From assembly GCA_017882925.1 (NCBI GenBank), contig JADGOM010000013.1:1-42255 (forward strand): DNA of 42,255 nt, in the 5' to 3' direction. Position numbers and translations under genes: made by a program. Positions 32,908 to 42,255 of this stretch are shown here, piece by piece. This DNA is from Acidimicrobiia bacterium (GTDB taxonomy: Bacteria; Actinomycetota; Acidimicrobiia; IMCC26256; Chersky-534). Within the stretch, counting starts at the first letter, position 1. Each line of letters begins with the position of its first letter. The notes beneath the pieces are model-generated. The model was given only the letters and a program-made list of their open reading frames with translations. It had not been told where the DNA came from and searched no databases.

Positions 32908-33344
32908 GGTTGGGGCTCCAGTTCCTGGGTTGCGGGGCGGCCCGCCGCGACGGCGACCTCACCGGAGACACAACCGCCTCCGTCGACGGCCGTCAAGACC
33001 TCCGCCAGCGACACGGTCCCGATCGGGTCACCCGCGGCGTCCACGACGATGAGCTGCGTGGCCTGCGAACGGAGCATCGCCGCGAGCGCGTCGAAGGCCG
33101 TCGTGGAGGCCACGACCGTCTCGCAGTCGGACGACACCGCGACCATCGCCGACGTGAGCGGCGACCGCCCGAGCGCCGTCGCGGCCACGAGATCGCGTTC
33201 GGTGAGGATCGCGGCACCCGAACCGATGACCACCGCCGTGGCCCCCGTCCGCACCATCGACTGCGCGGCCTCGAGCAGCCGCGTGTCGCGCGGGAGCGCC
33301 ACCACCCGTGCGAGCTCCATGTCCATCACCTGCATCATCTGCAT
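32904..33344 (-). CDS. CBS-domain pair protein (Rv2626c/Hrp1-like architecture)
   Basis: 146 aa with two CBS-like repeats (ILTERDLV, PIGTVSLAEVL). GGAGG lies about 9 nt upstream of ATG 33344. Confidence 0.7.
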   Translation of the reverse strand: MQMMQVMDMELARVVALPRDTRLLEAAQSMVRTGATAVVIGSGAAILTERDLVAATALGRSPLTSAMVAVSSDCETVVASTTAFDALAAMLRSQATQLIVVDAAGDPIGTVSLAEVLTAVDGGGCVSGEVAVAAGRPATQELEPQP

Positions 33345-33399
33345 GACCGGCCCCCTCCCCTCGCCATGGCAACAGCTTGGGCAACGCCGCCCGCGGCCG

Positions 33400-33419
33400 T
33401 CAGGGCCAAAGGTCCCGAG
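33400..33419 (-). promoter_or_regulatory. DosR-box-like motif copy B (tcAGGGccaAAGGTCCCgag), upstream of the CBS-USP-USP-ABC operon
   Basis: Read directly; 56-75 nt upstream of ATG 33344. Confidence 0.6.
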
Positions 33420-33461
33420 CCTTCAGGAAGCCGACACCCGGGAACCGGCTCACCCGTGGCG

Positions 33462-34370
33462 TCAGGTGCGCGGGGCGATCGTGGTGCCCGCGGTGCCTTC
33501 GAGCAGCGCGAGCGCGTCGCCGAGCGCACCGATCCCCGCGGTGCCACCCGAATCGCGGGCGAACCGGCACGCGGCCGCCACCTTGGGTCCCATCGACCCG
33601 GCGGCGAACCCGATCCGCTCCATCGAGTCGGGGTCGGAGGTCCGGATCAGGTGCGCGTCGGCGCGGCCCCAGTCCGCGACGACGCCCTCCACGTCGGTGA
33701 GGAGCAGGAGGCGGTCGGCGCCGAGCCGCGTCGCGAGCAGGGCCGACGTCGCGTCCTTGTCGACCACGGCCTCCACCCCCCGGTAGCCACCTGCCTCGTC
33801 GAGCGTGACCGGCACTCCCCCGCCGCCGGCGCAGACGACCACGATCCCGCGGTCGACGAGGAGCTCGATGGTGTGGAGCTCGACGATCGCCGCGGGCGCG
33901 GGCGACGGCACGACCCGGCGCCAGCGGTCGCCGTCCGGCGCGATGGACCAACCGTGGTCGGCGACGACGCGCAACGCGGCCTCTTGGTCGTAGACGGGCC
34001 CCACCGGCTTCGACGGCTTCGCGAACGCCGGATCCGCCGGATCGACCACCACCTGGGTGAGCAGAGTGGCGACGTCGCGGTCGCGCAGCTCGTTGCCGAT
34101 GGCCTGCTCGAGCAGGTAGCCGATCATGCCTTCGCTCTCGGCGCCGAGGACGTCGAGCGGATACGGCTCGGCGCCGCGGTATGCGGCCGCCTGCAGCGCG
34201 AGCAGGCCGACCTGCGGCCCGTTGCCGTGGGTCACGACCACCCGGTGGTCGCGCGCGAGCTCGGCGATCGCCGCGGCCGCGGTCTTCACGTTGCGGCGCT
34301 GCACCTCGGCGTCGAGCGGCTCACCCCGCCGGAGCAGCGCGTTCCCACCCAGGGCGACGACGATCAGCAT
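33462..34370 (-). CDS. arcC: Carbamate kinase
   Basis: IVVALGGNAL, VVTHGNGPQVG and VVCAGGGGVPV motifs. Overlaps the OTC gene stop by 7 nt. Confidence 0.9.
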   Translation of the reverse strand: MLIVVALGGNALLRRGEPLDAEVQRRNVKTAAAAIAELARDHRVVVTHGNGPQVGLLALQAAAYRGAEPYPLDVLGAESEGMIGYLLEQAIGNELRDRDVATLLTQVVVDPADPAFAKPSKPVGPVYDQEAALRVVADHGWSIAPDGDRWRRVVPSPAPAAIVELHTIELLVDRGIVVVCAGGGGVPVTLDEAGGYRGVEAVVDKDATSALLATRLGADRLLLLTDVEGVVADWGRADAHLIRTSDPDSMERIGFAAGSMGPKVAAACRFARDSGGTAGIGALGDALALLEGTAGTTIAPRT

Positions 34371-35305
34371 CCCGACCCCGTGAGCCGGCCCCGCACCAGC
34401 CCGTGGAGCACGGCCTGCGCGGTCGGCAGCCGGTTCTCCGCCTGGCGGAGCACGATCGACCGCGGCCCGTCGATGACCTCGGGCGCGACCTCGTCGGCCC
34501 GGCGGGCGGGAAGGCAGTGCATGAACCGGGCGTCGTGCGAGGCCTCGGCGAACAGCTCACCGGTCACGCGGTAGGGGGCGAGGGCGAACTCCCGCTCCGG
34601 CTTCTCCGACCCGGGATCGCCCATCGACATCCACGCGTCGGTGTAGACGAAGTCGGCCGCCTTCACCGCGGCGTGGGGATCGTTGACCACCTCGACCCGC
34701 GCGCCCGTCACCGCGGCGATGCGCCGCGCCCGCTCGACCACCTCGTCGGACGGCGCGTACCCGGGGGGCGTCGCGATGGCGATGTCCATGCCCACCAGCG
34801 CCGCGCCTTCGAGGAGGCTGTGGGCGACGTTGTTGCCGTCGCCGAGGTAGGCGAGCTTCAGCCCGGCGAAATCACCGTAGAGCTCGCGGATCGTGAGCAG
34901 GTCGGCGATGCTCTGGCAGGGGTGGTGCCGGTCGGTCAACGCGTTGATCACCGGGATCGTCGCGTGCTCGGCGAACGTCCGCACCTGCTCGTCGTCGGGC
35001 GTGCGGATCACGACCGCGGCGGCGTACTCCGACACGACGCGGGCGGTGTCGGCGGTCGTCTCCGGGTGCCCCATCTGCAGATCGCCCGGCCCGACGACGA
35101 CCGGCGTGCCGCCCATGCGGGCCACCGCGGTCTCGAACGACAGCCGGGTGCGGGTCGACGGCGTGGTCAGGTAGAGGACCACGGTCTCGCCCCGCAGCAG
35201 CTTGTGGTCGATCCGGTGATCGAGCTTCAGCTCCTCGGCGAATGCGAGCAGGTACTCGAGATCGTCGGGGGACAGATCCGCGGTGCGGAGCAGATCCTTC
35301 AACAT
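34364..35305 (-). CDS. argF: Ornithine carbamoyltransferase
   Basis: STRTR, HPCQ, DAWMSMG and HCLPA motifs. GGAGGA lies 5 nt upstream of ATG 35305. A catabolic role (arcB) is suggested only by coupling to arcC. Confidence 0.88.
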   Translation of the reverse strand: MLKDLLRTADLSPDDLEYLLAFAEELKLDHRIDHKLLRGETVVLYLTTPSTRTRLSFETAVARMGGTPVVVGPGDLQMGHPETTADTARVVSEYAAAVVIRTPDDEQVRTFAEHATIPVINALTDRHHPCQSIADLLTIRELYGDFAGLKLAYLGDGNNVAHSLLEGAALVGMDIAIATPPGYAPSDEVVERARRIAAVTGARVEVVNDPHAAVKAADFVYTDAWMSMGDPGSEKPEREFALAPYRVTGELFAEASHDARFMHCLPARRADEVAPEVIDGPRSIVLRQAENRLPTAQAVLHGLVRGRLTGSGC

Positions 35306-35361
35306 GGTGTCCTCCGGTGTTCGCGGCGGACTCCAGAGTGCGACGGCGGGTCCGGGTGTCG

Positions 35362-35381
35362 TCAGGGTCCAAGGTCCCGAA
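35362..35381 (-). promoter_or_regulatory. DosR-box-like motif copy C (tcAGGGtccAAGGTCCCgaa), in the divergent region between the OTC gene and the haem-binding-domain gene
   Basis: Read directly. Lies 57-76 nt upstream of ATG 35305 and 56-75 nt upstream of ATG 35437. It is the most palindromic copy (GGGtCC-AA-GGTCCC) and matches 14 of 20 positions of TTSGGGACTWWAGTCCCSAA. Confidence 0.6.
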
Positions 35382-35436
35382 CCGGCGGGGCCGCGCGGCA
35401 CTATCGCCGTTGCGGCGGGATCGGTAGACCGGAGCC

Positions 35437-35889
35437 ATGAGAAAGCGCCTGCTCATCGTCCTCGCCGCGCTGGTGGCCGCGTTCCTGCTGATACAGCTCG
35501 TCCCCTACCGGGTGACGAACCCGCCCGTCGGCGCGGAGCCGAAGTGGGACAGCCCGCGCACGCGCCAACTCGCGGTCGCGGCGTGCTTCGACTGCCACAG
35601 CAACCAGACCCACACCACCTGGTGGGAAGACGTCGCGCCGCTCTCGTGGTGGATCACCAACCACGTGCGCGACGGCCGCGCCGCACTCAACTTCTCGGAG
35701 TGGGGCTCCTCGCAGGGTGAGGGCGCGGGGGACGCGGCCGAGACGGTGTCGAACGGGTCGATGCCACCGAACTACTACACGTGGCTGGGCATGCACGGCC
35801 CGGCGAGCCTCACGGCCGCGGAGCGCAAGGAGCTCGCCACCGGGCTGCAGAAGACCCTCGGCGGATCGGGGGGCTCCGGAGGCGGCTGA
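35437..35889 (+). CDS. Haem-binding-domain (PF14376-like) protein with an N-terminal signal/anchor
   Basis: MRKRLLIVLAALVAAFLLI signal, CFDCHS (CxxCH) and LNFSEW...GSMPP pattern. Has a Gly/Ser tail. Confidence 0.7.
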   Translation: MRKRLLIVLAALVAAFLLIQLVPYRVTNPPVGAEPKWDSPRTRQLAVAACFDCHSNQTHTTWWEDVAPLSWWITNHVRDGRAALNFSEWGSSQGEGAGDAAETVSNGSMPPNYYTWLGMHGPASLTAAERKELATGLQKTLGGSGGSGGG

Positions 35890-36351: not shown

Positions 36352-36371
36352 CCAGGGTCGAAGGACCCGAC
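36352..36371 (-). promoter_or_regulatory. DosR-box-like motif copy F (ccAGGGtcgAAGGaCCCgac), upstream of the PNPOx-fold gene and overlapping the dosR stop
   Basis: Read directly. Lies 33-52 nt upstream of the start at 36319, with one mismatch in the strong half-site. Confidence 0.45.
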
Positions 36372-37039
36372 TACGCGTCGGACCGGGGCTTTGCGCCCCG
36401 GGACACATTGGCCCCGAAGACGGCGGCCTGGGTCCGCCGCTCCATGCCGAGCTTGGCCAGGAGGTTGGAGACGTAGTTCTTCACCGTCTTCTCGGCGAGG
36501 AACATCCGCTCCGCGATCTGGCGGTTGGTGAGCCCCTCGGCGATCAGGGCGAGGATCTTGCGCTCCTGCCCGGTGAGCCGGGCCAGGCGCTCGTCCTCCT
36601 TCGGCGGTTGGCGGACCCGGTCCATGACCCGGCCCACCAGCGTGGGATCGAGCAGCGACTGGCCCGCAGCCACCCGGCGGACCGCGTCGACGATGTCGGT
36701 GCCCCGCACCTGCTTCAGGAGGTAGCCCGAGGCTCCGGCCACGACCGCCTCGAACAGGGCCTCGTCGTCGGAGAACGACGTGAGCATGAGGCACTTGATC
36801 TCGGGGTGCGCGGAACGGACGTCGCGGCAGACCTCGACCCCGGATCCGTCGGGGAGCTGCACGTCGAGGATGGCGACGTGGGGCCGGGTGGGCGGGATGC
36901 GGGCGATCGCCTCCGCCGCCGTGCCCGCCTCGCCGACGACCTCGATCCCGTCGGTTCCCTCGAGCAGCGTGCGCACGCCTTCCCGCACGATCTCGTGATC
37001 GTCGAGCAGGAACACCCGGATCGGCGTGTGGTCATCCAT
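36371..37039 (-). CDS. dosR: NarL/LuxR-family response regulator, DosR/DevR-like
   Basis: Receiver domain RVFLLDDHEIV...VAILDVQLPDGSG, then LTGQERKILALIAEGLTNRQIAERMFLAEKTVKNYVSNLLAKLG HTH. The ATG overlaps the kinase stop by 8 nt. Confidence 0.85.
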   Translation of the reverse strand: MDDHTPIRVFLLDDHEIVREGVRTLLEGTDGIEVVGEAGTAAEAIARIPPTRPHVAILDVQLPDGSGVEVCRDVRSAHPEIKCLMLTSFSDDEALFEAVVAGASGYLLKQVRGTDIVDAVRRVAAGQSLLDPTLVGRVMDRVRQPPKEDERLARLTGQERKILALIAEGLTNRQIAERMFLAEKTVKNYVSNLLAKLGMERRTQAAVFGANVSRGAKPRSDA

Positions 37040-38810
37040 TGCGTCGGTTCCCGTTCCCGTCGAGCGATGTCGGCACCCGCCAGACGATCGTCGTGCCCGC
37101 GCCCGGCTCACTGGTGATCTCGAACGTACCGCTCAACGCCGCGGCCCGGCTCTCGAGGTTGGCCACGCCGCTGCGGCGGTCGTGCCCGGCCTGGAACCCC
37201 ACGCCGTCGTCGGTCACCCGGAGGACGATCTCGTCGGCGACCTGCACCGACACCTCCACGCGGCTCGCTCGCGCGTGCCGGCTCGCGTTCGAAACGGCTT
37301 CCCGGGTGCACGCGACCAGGTGCCGGGCGACGTCGGCGTCGATGGCGGTGTCGACCGGGCCGTCGAAGACCACGTGGGCCTCGAACCCCGCCCGCTCGGC
37401 GTACTCGTTCACCAGGTCGAGGATCTCGACCCGCACGCCCGACTTCGGCGGGGTGGCCAGGCTGAAGATGCTGGTGCGGATCTCCTTGATGGTGGCGTCG
37501 ACCTCGTCGATCGCCTTCGAGATCCGGGGCGCCTGCGAGCCTGCGGCGTCCGCGATCGTCGACTGGAGCAGCATGCCGACGGCGAAGAGGCGCTGGATGA
37601 CGGTGTCGTGCAGATTTCGGCCGATGCGCTCCCGGTCTTCCAGCGTGCGCATGCGGTCGTTGTCGCGCCGGCTGCGGGCGAGCTCGATCGCGAGCGCGGC
37701 CTGCCGGGCGAAGCTCGTGATCACGTCGACGTCCATGTCGGCGAAGGGGCGCCCGCCCTTCGTGTTGTCGACCGACAGCACGCCGAGCACCCGGTCGGCG
37801 CCGCGGAGCGGCACGTAGACGACGGCCCCCGGCTGCAGGGCGGCGATGGCGGGGAGGAAGACCCGGGGATCCTGGGTCGCGTCCTCGACGATGTGCGTGA
37901 CGCCTTCCAGGTAGGCCTGGCCCGCCGCGGTCCCCTCGACCGGCACCGAGATGCCGACGATCTCCTCGGTGTGCTCGCCGTGGGCCGCGACGATCTCGAG
38001 GAGCCGGCCGTCGTCACTGGCGAGCATGACCCGCACCCCGTCGGCGCGGGCGATCGCACCGGCGCGCACCGCGATGTCCTGCAGCACCTCCTCGACCGGT
38101 TCGCCCGCCAGGAGGTTGCGGTTGATGTCGGCGATGGCGTCGATCCACTGCTCGCGCCGGCGCTGCTCGTCGTAGAGCGTCGCGTTCTCGATCGCGACTC
38201 CGGCGGCGATGGCGAGCGCGGAGACCAGCTCGAGGTCGGTGGAGGTGAACTCGTCGGCGCTCTGCTTCTCGCAGAGGTAGAGGTTGCCGAACACCGCCCC
38301 GCGGCTGCGCACCGGCACCCCGAGGAACGACCGCATGGGCGGGTGGTTCGCCGGGAAGCCCACCGATTCCCCGTGCTCGGAGAGGTCGCGCAGCATCAGC
38401 GGCCGGGGGTCGCGCACGAGGAGACCGAGGATGCCGTGACCGCGCGGGAGGGGCCCGATGCGCTCCCGGGTCTCGTCGTCGATGCCGACGGTGATGAACT
38501 CGGAGAGCTGCCGGTCGGCGCCGATCACGCCGAGCGCGCCGTACCGGGCGTCGACCAGGCGGCACGCGCCCTCGACGATGGCCCGAAGAACCTCGGGGAG
38601 GCTGAGGCCGGTGCCGACGGCGACGACTGCGTCGAGCAGCACCTGGAACCGGCCGACGGCGCCGAGCGCCGCGTTGGTCCGCACCCCGAGCTCGGCGACG
38701 AGCTCCTCGAGCTGGAGATGGGCCGCGTCGAGTCGGGGTGGGGCCGAGGCATCGCCAAGCTGGTCTCTCGGGTCCACGTATTCCCTCCGCAGACAAACCT
38801 CGGGCGCCAC
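37032..38810 (-). CDS. dosS: GAF-GAF-HisKA_3-HATPase sensor histidine kinase, DosS/DosT (DevS)-like haem sensor
   Basis: GAF-A segment GFPANHPPMRSFLGVPVRSRGAVFGNLYLCEK aligns with the mycobacterial DosS/DosT haem pocket, with the proximal His in HPPM conserved. H-box RIGRNLHDTVIQRLFAVG. C-terminal ATPase domain. Confidence 0.85.
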   Translation of the reverse strand: MAPEVCLRREYVDPRDQLGDASAPPRLDAAHLQLEELVAELGVRTNAALGAVGRFQVLLDAVVAVGTGLSLPEVLRAIVEGACRLVDARYGALGVIGADRQLSEFITVGIDDETRERIGPLPRGHGILGLLVRDPRPLMLRDLSEHGESVGFPANHPPMRSFLGVPVRSRGAVFGNLYLCEKQSADEFTSTDLELVSALAIAAGVAIENATLYDEQRRREQWIDAIADINRNLLAGEPVEEVLQDIAVRAGAIARADGVRVMLASDDGRLLEIVAAHGEHTEEIVGISVPVEGTAAGQAYLEGVTHIVEDATQDPRVFLPAIAALQPGAVVYVPLRGADRVLGVLSVDNTKGGRPFADMDVDVITSFARQAALAIELARSRRDNDRMRTLEDRERIGRNLHDTVIQRLFAVGMLLQSTIADAAGSQAPRISKAIDEVDATIKEIRTSIFSLATPPKSGVRVEILDLVNEYAERAGFEAHVVFDGPVDTAIDADVARHLVACTREAVSNASRHARASRVEVSVQVADEIVLRVTDDGVGFQAGHDRRSGVANLESRAAALSGTFEITSEPGAGTTIVWRVPTSLDGNGNRRNG

Positions 38811-40590: not shown

Positions 40591-41166
40591 ATGCGAGCAG
40601 TGGTGGTCTACGAGTCGATGTACGGCAACACGCACCACGTGGCCAACGCGATCGCGACCGGGCTGGGGCTCGGACTCGGGCTCGACGCCCAGGTGGTCGT
40701 GGTCCCGGTGAACGCCGCGATCCGCGAGACGATCGAACGGGCCGACCTCCTCGTGGTCGGCGGCCCGACCCACGTCCACGGCATGAGCCGCGAGAGCACG
40801 CGCCAGTCGGCGATCGAGACCGCGCACAAGCCCGAGTCCGAGCTCGAGATCGACCCCGACGCCGAGGGACCCGGCATCCGCGACTGGTTCGAGACCATCG
40901 ACCGCTTCGAGGGCCGTGCCGCCGCGTTCGACACCCGCCTCGACGGGCCCACCCTGCTCACCGGACGCGCGTCGAAGGGCATCGCCCACCAGCTCCGCAA
41001 GCACGGTGCCGCGCTCATCGCCGATCCCGAGAGCTTCCTGGTCACCAAGGACAACCACCTCGAGCCCGCGGAGGACGCGCGGGCCCGCGATTGGGGTTCC
41101 GAGCTCGCCCGCCTCACGACCGCGGGTGTGCCGGCCTCGGCGGGGGCCCGCTCGAAGACCCGATGA
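40591..41166 (+). CDS. Flavodoxin-like fold protein
   Basis: MRAVVVYESMYGNTHHVA N-terminal FMN-phosphate loop and LLVVGGPTH. GGAGG lies 7 nt upstream of the ATG. Confidence 0.75.
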   Translation: MRAVVVYESMYGNTHHVANAIATGLGLGLGLDAQVVVVPVNAAIRETIERADLLVVGGPTHVHGMSRESTRQSAIETAHKPESELEIDPDAEGPGIRDWFETIDRFEGRAAAFDTRLDGPTLLTGRASKGIAHQLRKHGAALIADPESFLVTKDNHLEPAEDARARDWGSELARLTTAGVPASAGARSKTR

Positions 41167-41227
41167 CGGTCCCGCCGTACCGGCGGCCCGGTCATCGGGC
41201 CCCGGCACCGGCGGTGATACTGGGCCC

Positions 41228-42255
41228 GTGACCGCGACCGCCCCCGAGTCGACGTGGTCCGGGACCAGCGCGGCCGAGGTGGCCGCGCTCGGGCCCGGCG
41301 ACGTCCTGGCGCGGCTCGGCACGACGGTCGACGGGCTCACGAGCCACGAGGCCCTCCGCCGGGCCGGGCAGGTGGGATCCAACACCGTGCGCACGCAGCG
41401 CACCCGGTGGTGGGTGGTGCTCGGCCGCCAGCTGCACAGCGCGCTGTTCCTCCTGCTGGTCGTCACCGCGGCGCTGTCGTTCTTCGTGGGCAGCAAGTCC
41501 GACGCGGTGATCATCGGCGTCATCCTGGCGATCTCGATCGGGCTCGGCTTCGTCAACGAGTTCCGGGCCGAGCTCGCGGCCGAGGCGCTGCACACGCAGA
41601 TCCACCACGACGTCGTCGTGCGCCGCGACGGCCGCGCGACCTCGCTCGACGCCCGGGAGCTGGTGCCGGGCGACGTGGTCCGGTTGAGCATGGGCGAGCT
41701 GGTGCCGGCCGACGTGCGCGTCCTCACCACCGACTCGCTCGAGTGCGACGAGTCGATCCTCACCGGCGAGTCGGTGGCCGCGGTGAAGTCGCCGGCGCCC
41801 GTCGCCGCGGGGACGGGCCTGGCCGACACGTCGTCATGCGCCTACATGGGCACCATCGTGCAGTCGGGATCCGCGCTGGCGGTGGTCGTCGCGACCGGCA
41901 CGCGCACCGAGTTCGGCCGTATCGCGGTGGGCCTCACCGACCGCCGCCACGAGACCGAGTTCCAGAAGGGCCTGCGGGAGTTCTCGGTGCTCCTGGTCCG
42001 CGTCGCCGGTGTGCTGACCACGTCGATCCTGGTCATCAACCTCCTCCTCCACCGCAACTTCCTGGAGTCGGTGCTCTTCTCGCTCGCCATCGCGGTCGGC
42101 ATCACGCCCCAGCTGCTCCCGGCCGTCGTCACCACCAGCCTCGCGGCGGGGTCACGGCGCCTGGCCCACAAGAAGGTCCTCGTCAAGCGGCTGGTGAGCA
42201 TCGAGGACCTCGGCAACATCGAGCTGCTGCTCACCGACAAGACCGGCACGCTCAC
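41228..42255 (+). CDS. Cation-transporting P-type ATPase, 5' part only (runs off the window); MgtA-like TM4 motif
   Basis: Hand translation from GTG 41228: ...GLTSHEALRRAGQVGSN..., LTGES, GITPQLLPAVVT, and DKTGTL at the window edge. Not present in the ORF track. The GTG is the first in-frame start after the flavodoxin stop. Confidence 0.8.
   Translation, partial: MTATAPESTWSGTSAAEVAALGPGDVLARLGTTVDGLTSHEALRRAGQVGSNTVRTQRTRWWVVLGRQLHSALFLLLVVTAALSFFVGSKSDAVIIGVILAISIGLGFVNEFRAELAAEALHTQIHHDVVVRRDGRATSLDARELVPGDVVRLSMGELVPADVRVLTTDSLECDESILTGESVAAVKSPAPVAAGTGLADTSSCAYMGTIVQSGSALAVVVATGTRTEFGRIAVGLTDRRHETEFQKGLREFSVLLVRVAGVLTTSILVINLLLHRNFLESVLFSLAIAVGITPQLLPAVVTTSLAAGSRRLAHKKVLVKRLVSIEDLGNIELLLTDKTGTL

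Follow-up and report, generated by a model that had tools for sequence, protein, structure and literature searches.

The window analysed here is a stretch of 42,255 nucleotides (positions 1 to 42,255 of contig JADGOM010000013.1, 72% GC) from the metagenome-assembled genome of an uncultured Acidimicrobiia bacterium (GCA_017882925.1; 3.4 Mb in 291 contigs, 80% complete). On its minus strand, a gene for ornithine carbamoyltransferase (OTC) overlaps the carbamate kinase gene arcC, and the pair is preceded by a putative operator of the DosR type, designated box C. The elements of this putative operon are the following:

33462 to 34370, minus strand: carbamate kinase ArcC, 302 amino acids (PRK12354, TIGR00746, motif blocks)
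34364 to 35305, minus strand: OTC, 313 amino acids, assigned to a catabolic lineage (TIGR00658, match to 4ep1, tree)
35310 to 35315, minus strand: Shine-Dalgarno sequence GGAGGA, with a gap of 4 nt to the OTC start codon (seen in the sequence itself)
35335 to 35340, minus strand: CACTCT, a possible −10-like hexamer 21 nt downstream of box C (a weak, inferred element)
35362 to 35381, minus strand: box C, putative DosR-type operator of 20 bp, TTCGGGACCTTGGACCCTGA in gene orientation (motif count; 27.9 bits with a position weight matrix, PWM)

An initial annotation of this DNA had identified the two enzymes from short motifs (STRTR, HPCQ, and HCLPA in OTC) and a 7-nt overlap, and had considered the genes translationally coupled. 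Motifs, profile scores, and the overlap itself bear out these assignments. OTC scored 348 bits against TIGR00658, above the curated cut-off of 280.85, and matched Bacillus anthracis OTC (4ep1) over its full length with 284 bits; it is of the short ArgF-like type and matched the P. furiosus enzyme (1a1s) with 273 bits. ArcC passed the cut-offs of both PRK12354 (453.6 bits; cut-off 361) and TIGR00746 (368 bits; cut-off 358), and all seven strongly conserved motif blocks that were checked are present, including HGNGPQVG, GGGGVP, VDKD, and SMGPK. The OTC stop and the arcC start share the heptamer ATGCTGA (...GGA TGC TGA and ATG CTG ATC in the respective frames), an arrangement that predicts translational coupling. 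The ATG at position 35305 is the more likely start of OTC, as opposed to an alternative GTG at 35401, because it is preceded by GGAGGA and because homologues begin there.

A second point raised by the initial annotation concerned the sequence LYLTTPSTRTR, which replaces the common F-x-K-x-STRTR and had led to the caution that the carbamoyl acceptor should not be assumed. The unusual context is real, but the doubt about the acceptor is not sustained. A putrescine, acetylornithine, or YgeW-type transcarbamylase was rejected because the respective models score far under their cut-offs (250.8, 174, and 66 bits, with cut-offs of 500, 288, and 500) and because the ornithine-side residues (DGNNV, D-x-W-x-SMG, and HCLP) are intact; the aspartate transcarbamylase model fails as well (151 bits; cut-off 237). 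None of the 17 strictly conserved catalytic positions that were scored has changed, and the intact elements comprise STRTR, the arginine of I-R-T, HPxQ, DGNNV, D-x-x-x-SMG, HCLP, and the C-terminal arginine. What has been lost is a lysine two residues before STRTR, replaced by threonine in the window OTC and found in 111 of 120 aligned OTC sequences. Its human equivalent, K88, is an active-site residue whose neutralization, as in K88Q, reduces both the carbamoyl-phosphate affinity and Vmax (PMC3410420). The lysine is tied to carbamoyl-phosphate affinity, not to the choice of acceptor.

Several lines of evidence separate the window OTC from arginine biosynthesis, a role that the initial annotation had reserved for a transcarbamylase clustering with anabolic ArgF in a genome lacking another argF. 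A second OTC, 42.5% identical to the first, is encoded on contig C207 (8171-9070) beside an amino-acid-kinase (argB-like) match, and CarB is encoded on C129 next to PyrB. Maximum-likelihood analysis placed the window OTC together with the other OTCs from DosR islands (99% support), whereas the ArgF sequences of Acidimicrobiia (99%) and classical ArcB (100%) formed clades of their own. A housekeeping ArgF identity was rejected on the basis of the second OTC, CarB, and this separation. As a side observation, the near-universal STRTR reads SARTR in the housekeeping ArgF of 4 of 4 genomes checked (G000, G001, G040, and G046). G001, a 93% complete genome of the same genus, has an argF-type OTC as its sole OTC, lacks arcC, and contains a smaller dosRS island (dosS–dosR–GNAT); OTC–arcC is therefore an accessory module.

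The operons of more distant relatives point to the origin of this module. Since sampling through arcC might bias the picture of gene context, metagenomes were also searched using OTC itself, which retrieved relatives of at most 58% identity (nearest, 46–58%). Arginine deiminase (ADI) precedes OTC and arcC in three of the loci (L175, L178, and L073), and a gene resembling the arginine synthetase ArcE directly precedes OTC in ArcE-like–OTC–arcC operons of three others (L176, L177, and L117). Clusters of a P-loop protein with OTC and arcC occur in L176, L177, L180, L181, and L185. More broadly, this P-loop protein, which has about 430 amino acids and is a member of the 'cyclic 2,3-diphosphoglycerate synthase / GTPase' family, adjoins arcC in 22 loci from many phyla (for example L030:10428-11768 and L034:6326-7837). 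The discoverers of arginine synthetase describe ArcE homologues as members of that family (PMC11032458), and the arcC-adjoining protein is probably bacterial ArcE, an assignment based on its Atlas family name, a weak resemblance to cyclic 2,3-diphosphoglycerate synthetase, the published description, and gene context; NCBIfam contains no model for the family. Given the ADI and ArcE-like neighbors in relatives, the OTC lineage normally supplies the middle step in a full operon leading from arginine to ATP, which gives the window OTC a catabolic ancestry.

The initial annotation had also reported a DosR-like box upstream of OTC, and box C proves to be a genuine, over-represented element within a dosRS island. 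It ends 57 nt before the OTC ATG. Its core, GGGACCTTNGNCCCT, occurs six times in the window when up to one mismatch is allowed, compared with 0.06 copies expected, and none of 100 shuffled sequences reached six. All six boxes are intergenic and share one asymmetric orientation that faces the downstream gene, which for box C is OTC; the motif is partly palindromic and fits a GGGAC-N4-GNCCC core. A CAnnCT-like element, judged by eye, follows most of the boxes compared at a distance of 20–22 nt. A scan of 33300-35500 found no consensus sigma-70 promoter and no intrinsic terminator, a result that is uninformative and to be expected in an actinobacterium with 72% GC. Between arcC and the following CBS gene no terminator-like site was predicted, and a further box is located there:

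33400 to 33419, minus strand: box B, 43 nt past the arcC stop, the operator for the operon that follows (CBS–USP–USP–ABC; USP, universal stress protein) (motif count, PWM)

The candidate regulator of these boxes is encoded 1 to 3.5 kb from box C:

36371 to 37111, minus strand: DosR/DevR orthologue, a NarL-type response regulator (Response_reg and GerE) whose exact start is uncertain (match to 3c3w, Pfam)
37032 to 38810, minus strand: DosS/DosT-like sensor kinase with GAF-GAF-HisKA_3-HATPase architecture (Pfam)

The response regulator matches Mycobacterium tuberculosis DevR (3c3w) with 256 bits, and its recognition-helix segment EKTVKNYVS is identical. GAF-A of the kinase matches the haem domains of DosT (2vzw) and DevS (2y8h) with 175 and 157 bits, respectively. 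In the rest of the genome, a PWM constructed from the six window boxes located sites before the genes for cytochrome bd subunit I (C269:1-675), a second PNPOx-fold protein and two proteins of unknown function (C105:2645-3130, C119:6800-7206, and C37:3215-4103), as well as a cluster of four boxes (C134:10700-22895) preceding genes for pyruvate phosphate dikinase (PPDK)/phosphoenolpyruvate (PEP) synthase, an AMP-forming (AMP-binding) ligase, an SRPBCC protein, and a 93-amino-acid open reading frame (ORF). All of these are high-scoring boxes outside the window. Collectively, the genes behind these predicted boxes form a plausible set for a low-oxygen regulon. The island leaves the contig within a P-type ATPase gene (40787-42253, plus strand); beyond the contig end there could be more box-controlled genes, conceivably including the missing first enzyme of the pathway.

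Because the PWM was built on the window, independent evidence for the boxes was taken from other genomes. At least six further genomes of Acidimicrobiia have a DosR-like box ahead of an operon that contains arcC, and in L061, L039, L040, L029, and L027 its place matches that of box C:

L061 (genome G061): box of 28.5 bits before OTC–arcC
L039 (genome G046): box of 22.8 bits before OTC–arcC
L040 (genome G065): box of 28.5 bits before arcC
L029 (genome G040): box of 19.3 bits, 57 nt before arcC
L155 (genome G303): box of 16.6 bits before arcC
L027 (genome G031): one-mismatch copy of the box before ADI–arcC, adjoining dosRS

Across arcC loci of many phyla, 1.57 Mb in total, PWM scores of at least 20 were confined to these Acidimicrobiia loci. 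In addition, dosR homologues with 72–74% identity directly flank ADI–(arcB)–arcC in G227, G300, and G195.

Two of these genomes show further peculiarities. In G040 (L029:8255-10501), an acetate kinase gene is situated directly upstream of arcC in a dosRS island together with genes for PNPOx, CBS, and P-type ATPase proteins, and this pair of kinases agrees with a theme of ATP-yielding kinases controlled by a DosR-type regulator; the arcC product of G040 has unusual changes in three motifs (HGNAPQVG, VPKD, and GMEAK). In G031 (93% complete), where ADI–arcC is next to dosRS, no OTC scored above the TIGR00658 cut-off, and the best hit (125 bits) is at the level of a PyrB match.

The absence of arcA and of an arginine/ornithine antiporter from the window, stated in the initial annotation, extends to the assembly as a whole, with the qualification that absence from the organism is not proven for ADI, ArcE, or ArcD in a genome that is 80% complete. 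Profile searches (TIGR01078 and PF02274) detected no ADI in the window or the assembly, and a tblastn search of the assembly with two Acidimicrobiia ADIs returned nothing below E = 1. No ArcD was found in the window, and the best TIGR03810 match in the assembly is an APC-family protein with 28 bits, compared with a cut-off of 591. Neither tblastn (E ≤ 1e-3) nor protein searches of the assembly with the arcC-linked ArcE-like protein of relatives gave a match; the profile, tblastn, and protein searches for an ADI or ArcE hidden in the 80% complete genome were thus all negative. An ArcE-like gene was also not found in G046, G061, G065, or G040. G061 and G065 encode ADI–arcB at a locus separate from their DosR-island arcC.

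Based on these data, we favor, with moderate confidence, a model in which OTC–arcC is a truncated arginine-fermentation operon that was recruited into a DosR-type low-oxygen regulon, where it would make ATP by substrate-level phosphorylation. The operon most likely descends from an ADI-type or ArcE-type operon. Its state without ADI would be a derived, truncated one, because relatives hold complete operons of either type and because, as described below, OTC decays where arcC is kept; both observations had escaped the initial annotation. The model builds on the enzyme identities, their coupling, the box with its conservation, the DosRS orthology, and the catabolic ancestry of OTC, all shown above, and presumes induction under hypoxia, flux in the direction of ATP, and a source of citrulline. 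Loss of O2 (or the presence of NO or CO) would be sensed by the haem kinase DosS, which would phosphorylate DosR. DosR would bind box C, about one promoter width upstream of the weak −10-like element, and an mRNA with a short leader would be transcribed. OTC would then convert citrulline and phosphate into ornithine and carbamoyl phosphate, and the coupled carbamate kinase would transfer the phosphate to ADP, yielding ATP, NH3, and CO2 when respiration fails. The earlier interpretation is thus partly supported: the model retains the enzymes, their coupling, the box, and the failure to find ADI and ArcD, and the refuting condition of an OTC that clusters with ArgF in a genome lacking another argF does not apply, which favors that interpretation; the reservation about the carbamoyl acceptor is given up.

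A number of observations weigh against this model. Neither an enzyme that produces citrulline from arginine nor an arginine/ornithine antiporter was found in the assembly, and G046, a genome of 98% completeness that shares the box–OTC–arcC layout, yielded no ADI and no ArcE either. Substrate supply is thus unexplained: either ADI or ArcE is encoded in the missing part of the genome, comparable to the separate loci of G061 and G065, or citrulline itself feeds the module. The window OTC has lost the K88-equivalent lysine, a change that may compromise its use of carbamoyl phosphate. No box was detected upstream of ADI in G227, G300, or G309 (L149–L151), so that box control is not universal. Box C is located 56 nt from the ATG of a divergent gene at 35437, about the same distance as to OTC. 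Finally, the OTC itself erodes among close relatives. Catalytic positions deviate in 12 of 26 homologues with at least 61.5% identity, compared with 4 of 94 more distant ones, a count that excludes one position variable everywhere and in which kinship means that the sequences are not independent. Four of the deviating homologues lack the carbamoyl-phosphate-binding arginine, and in the OTC of G046 four motifs are changed (STRAR, HPCE, GGGNV, and GVWLSTG). In L040 of G065 (JBBRHS010000187.1; 2052-2165), OTC has lost about 900 nt through a clean internal deletion, and what remains is an ORF of 22 codons with the N-terminus of OTC (VKDLLRTADL) and a window-like C-terminus, which still has the DosR-like box and still overlaps the start of arcC. 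The OTC step may therefore be dispensable.

These losses support the main rival, which holds that only carbamate kinase matters: OTC would be a redundant relic, and ArcC would be fed by ArgF or a distant ArcB operating in reverse, or by another source of carbamate or carbamoyl phosphate. Besides the L040 remnant, the replaced motifs of G046, and the excess of deviations among close homologues, it can draw on carbamate kinase motifs that are fully retained in the same genomes with a degraded OTC, on box-preceded arcC genes without an adjacent OTC in G040, G031, and G303, and on the separate ADI–arcB loci. OTC of the DosR-island clade is decaying while arcC is retained. The window OTC, however, keeps every strictly conserved position scored and has lost only the lysine, it is preceded by a strong Shine-Dalgarno sequence, and its GC content at third codon positions is 0.96. 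Its closest homologues are 83% and 81% identical, and the conservation relative to the nearest one suggests a gene that is expressed and under selection; at 64–72% protein identity, synonymous sites are saturated. Moreover, a single motif change need not inactivate an OTC and is not proof of inactivity, because the housekeeping ArgF of this lineage carries SARTR. On balance, we consider it unlikely that carbamate kinase alone matters here.

A generalization of this rival is similarly doubtful, namely that the DosR regulon of Acidimicrobiia selects carbamate kinase alone and that the linked OTC repeatedly decays to a noncatalytic protein or is deleted. If it were true, ArcC would have a role in dormancy without a dedicated citrulline-splitting partner, for example in buffering ATP against a carbamoyl-phosphate/carbamate pool or in synthesizing carbamoyl phosphate at the cost of one ATP, and eroded OTCs might persist as structural or regulatory partners.

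An anabolic direction is less likely than the catabolic one and is, in our estimate, improbable. In this scenario, carbamate kinase would make carbamoyl phosphate for one ATP, instead of the two spent by CarAB, and channel it to OTC for citrulline synthesis under energy limitation. The proposal would account for the lack of visible arginine input, given that ADI, ArcE, and ArcD were not found in the assembly, and for the short ArgF-like OTC with its similarity to the P. furiosus enzyme; tight translational coupling would also suit the channeling of a labile intermediate. Such channeling of carbamoyl phosphate has been proposed for the carbamate kinase–like enzyme and OTC of Pyrococcus furiosus. 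Yet the genome already encodes CarB and an OTC in an arg cluster, and loss of the lysine that supports carbamoyl-phosphate binding would harm synthesis most. The nearest retrievable OTC relatives are all found in arginine-degrading operons, the same box precedes ADI–arcC and an arcC adjoining the acetate kinase gene ackA in relatives, and losing OTC while keeping arcC would be senseless for citrulline synthesis. A use of carbamoyl phosphate in [NiFe]-hydrogenase maturation was considered separately and is unsupported, as no hypF was found in the assembly.

The remaining alternative concerns the closeness of box C to a divergent gene, a point that the initial annotation did not mention:

35437 to 35889, plus strand: divergent haem-binding-domain gene (PF14376), which shares the intergenic region of box C (Pfam)

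Box C could serve this gene, leaving OTC–arcC outside DosR control and its position in the island incidental; the near-equal spacing to the two start codons and the partly palindromic motif would permit this, but it is very improbable, considering that the common asymmetric orientation of the six boxes directs box C to OTC, that relatives keep the box before OTC–arcC or arcC even though their divergent neighbor is a flavodoxin-like gene with its own, opposite box, and that the 77%-identical homologue in G001 lies on another contig, away from dosRS. The haem-binding-domain gene sits inserted between OTC and the PNPOx gene and is probably not part of the module.

With regard to the favored model, its broader relevance lies in the maintenance of ATP during hypoxic non-growth, a long-standing question in mycobacteria, in which DosR regulons have almost exclusively been studied. 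In a widespread uncultured class of soil and water bacteria, a DosR-type regulator appears to switch on kinases of substrate-level phosphorylation, namely carbamate kinase, beside acetate kinase in one relative, together with cytochrome bd. This provides a testable picture of how nominal aerobes survive without oxygen. The relatives also offer a natural series of enzyme loss in which the partner is kept, from an intact OTC through one without the lysine and one without catalytic residues to a relic of 22 codons.

Comparison with described systems places the locus between several of them. The regulator, its identical recognition helix, the DosS/T-like haem kinase, and the GGGAC-N4-GNCCC box correspond to the DosR/DevR regulon of M. 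tuberculosis and the OsdR regulon of Streptomyces coelicolor (PMC5069765), as do the companion genes of the DosR regulon, which encode USPs, a CBS protein, PNPOx-fold proteins, an AAA_33/Zeta_toxin-type P-loop kinase ('Rv2004c-like'), and a P-type ATPase. In contrast to those regulons, the island here is compact and variable even within the genus, and carbamate kinase and OTC are not among their described members. That the link to arc genes falls outside the classical mycobacterial DosR regulon, as the initial annotation had remarked, agrees with the literature searched, in which no paper joins DosR and carbamate kinase and the OsdR paper (PMC5069765) names neither arc gene. Hence, the enzymes and the anaerobic induction of arc genes are classical, whereas DosR control of arc genes is not described in that literature, and the erosion of the OTC clade is a new observation.

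The arginine synthetase pathway (ArcE–ArcB–ArcC) of Thermococcus kodakarensis (PMC11032458) resembles the module in doing without ADI and in having OTC and carbamate kinase as its last enzymes, and an ArcE-like P-loop gene directly precedes the OTC lineage in L117, L176, and L177; it differs in that no ArcE-like gene was found here or in G046, G061, G065, and G040.

Another parallel is the ADI operon, arcABC(D), exemplified by arcDABC of Pseudomonas aeruginosa, which is induced anaerobically by ANR. Both systems combine a catabolic OTC with carbamate kinase for one ATP per citrulline, both follow the logic of induction when oxygen is lacking, and relatives of the window OTC lineage are themselves part of ADI–OTC–arcC operons (L073, L175, and L178). 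Unlike the ADI operon, the module has no arcA or arcD that could be found in the window or assembly, its OTC is of the short ArgF-like type as opposed to the classical ArcB clade of about 335 amino acids, and the DosRS two-component system takes the place of an FNR/ANR- or ArcR/ArgR-type factor.

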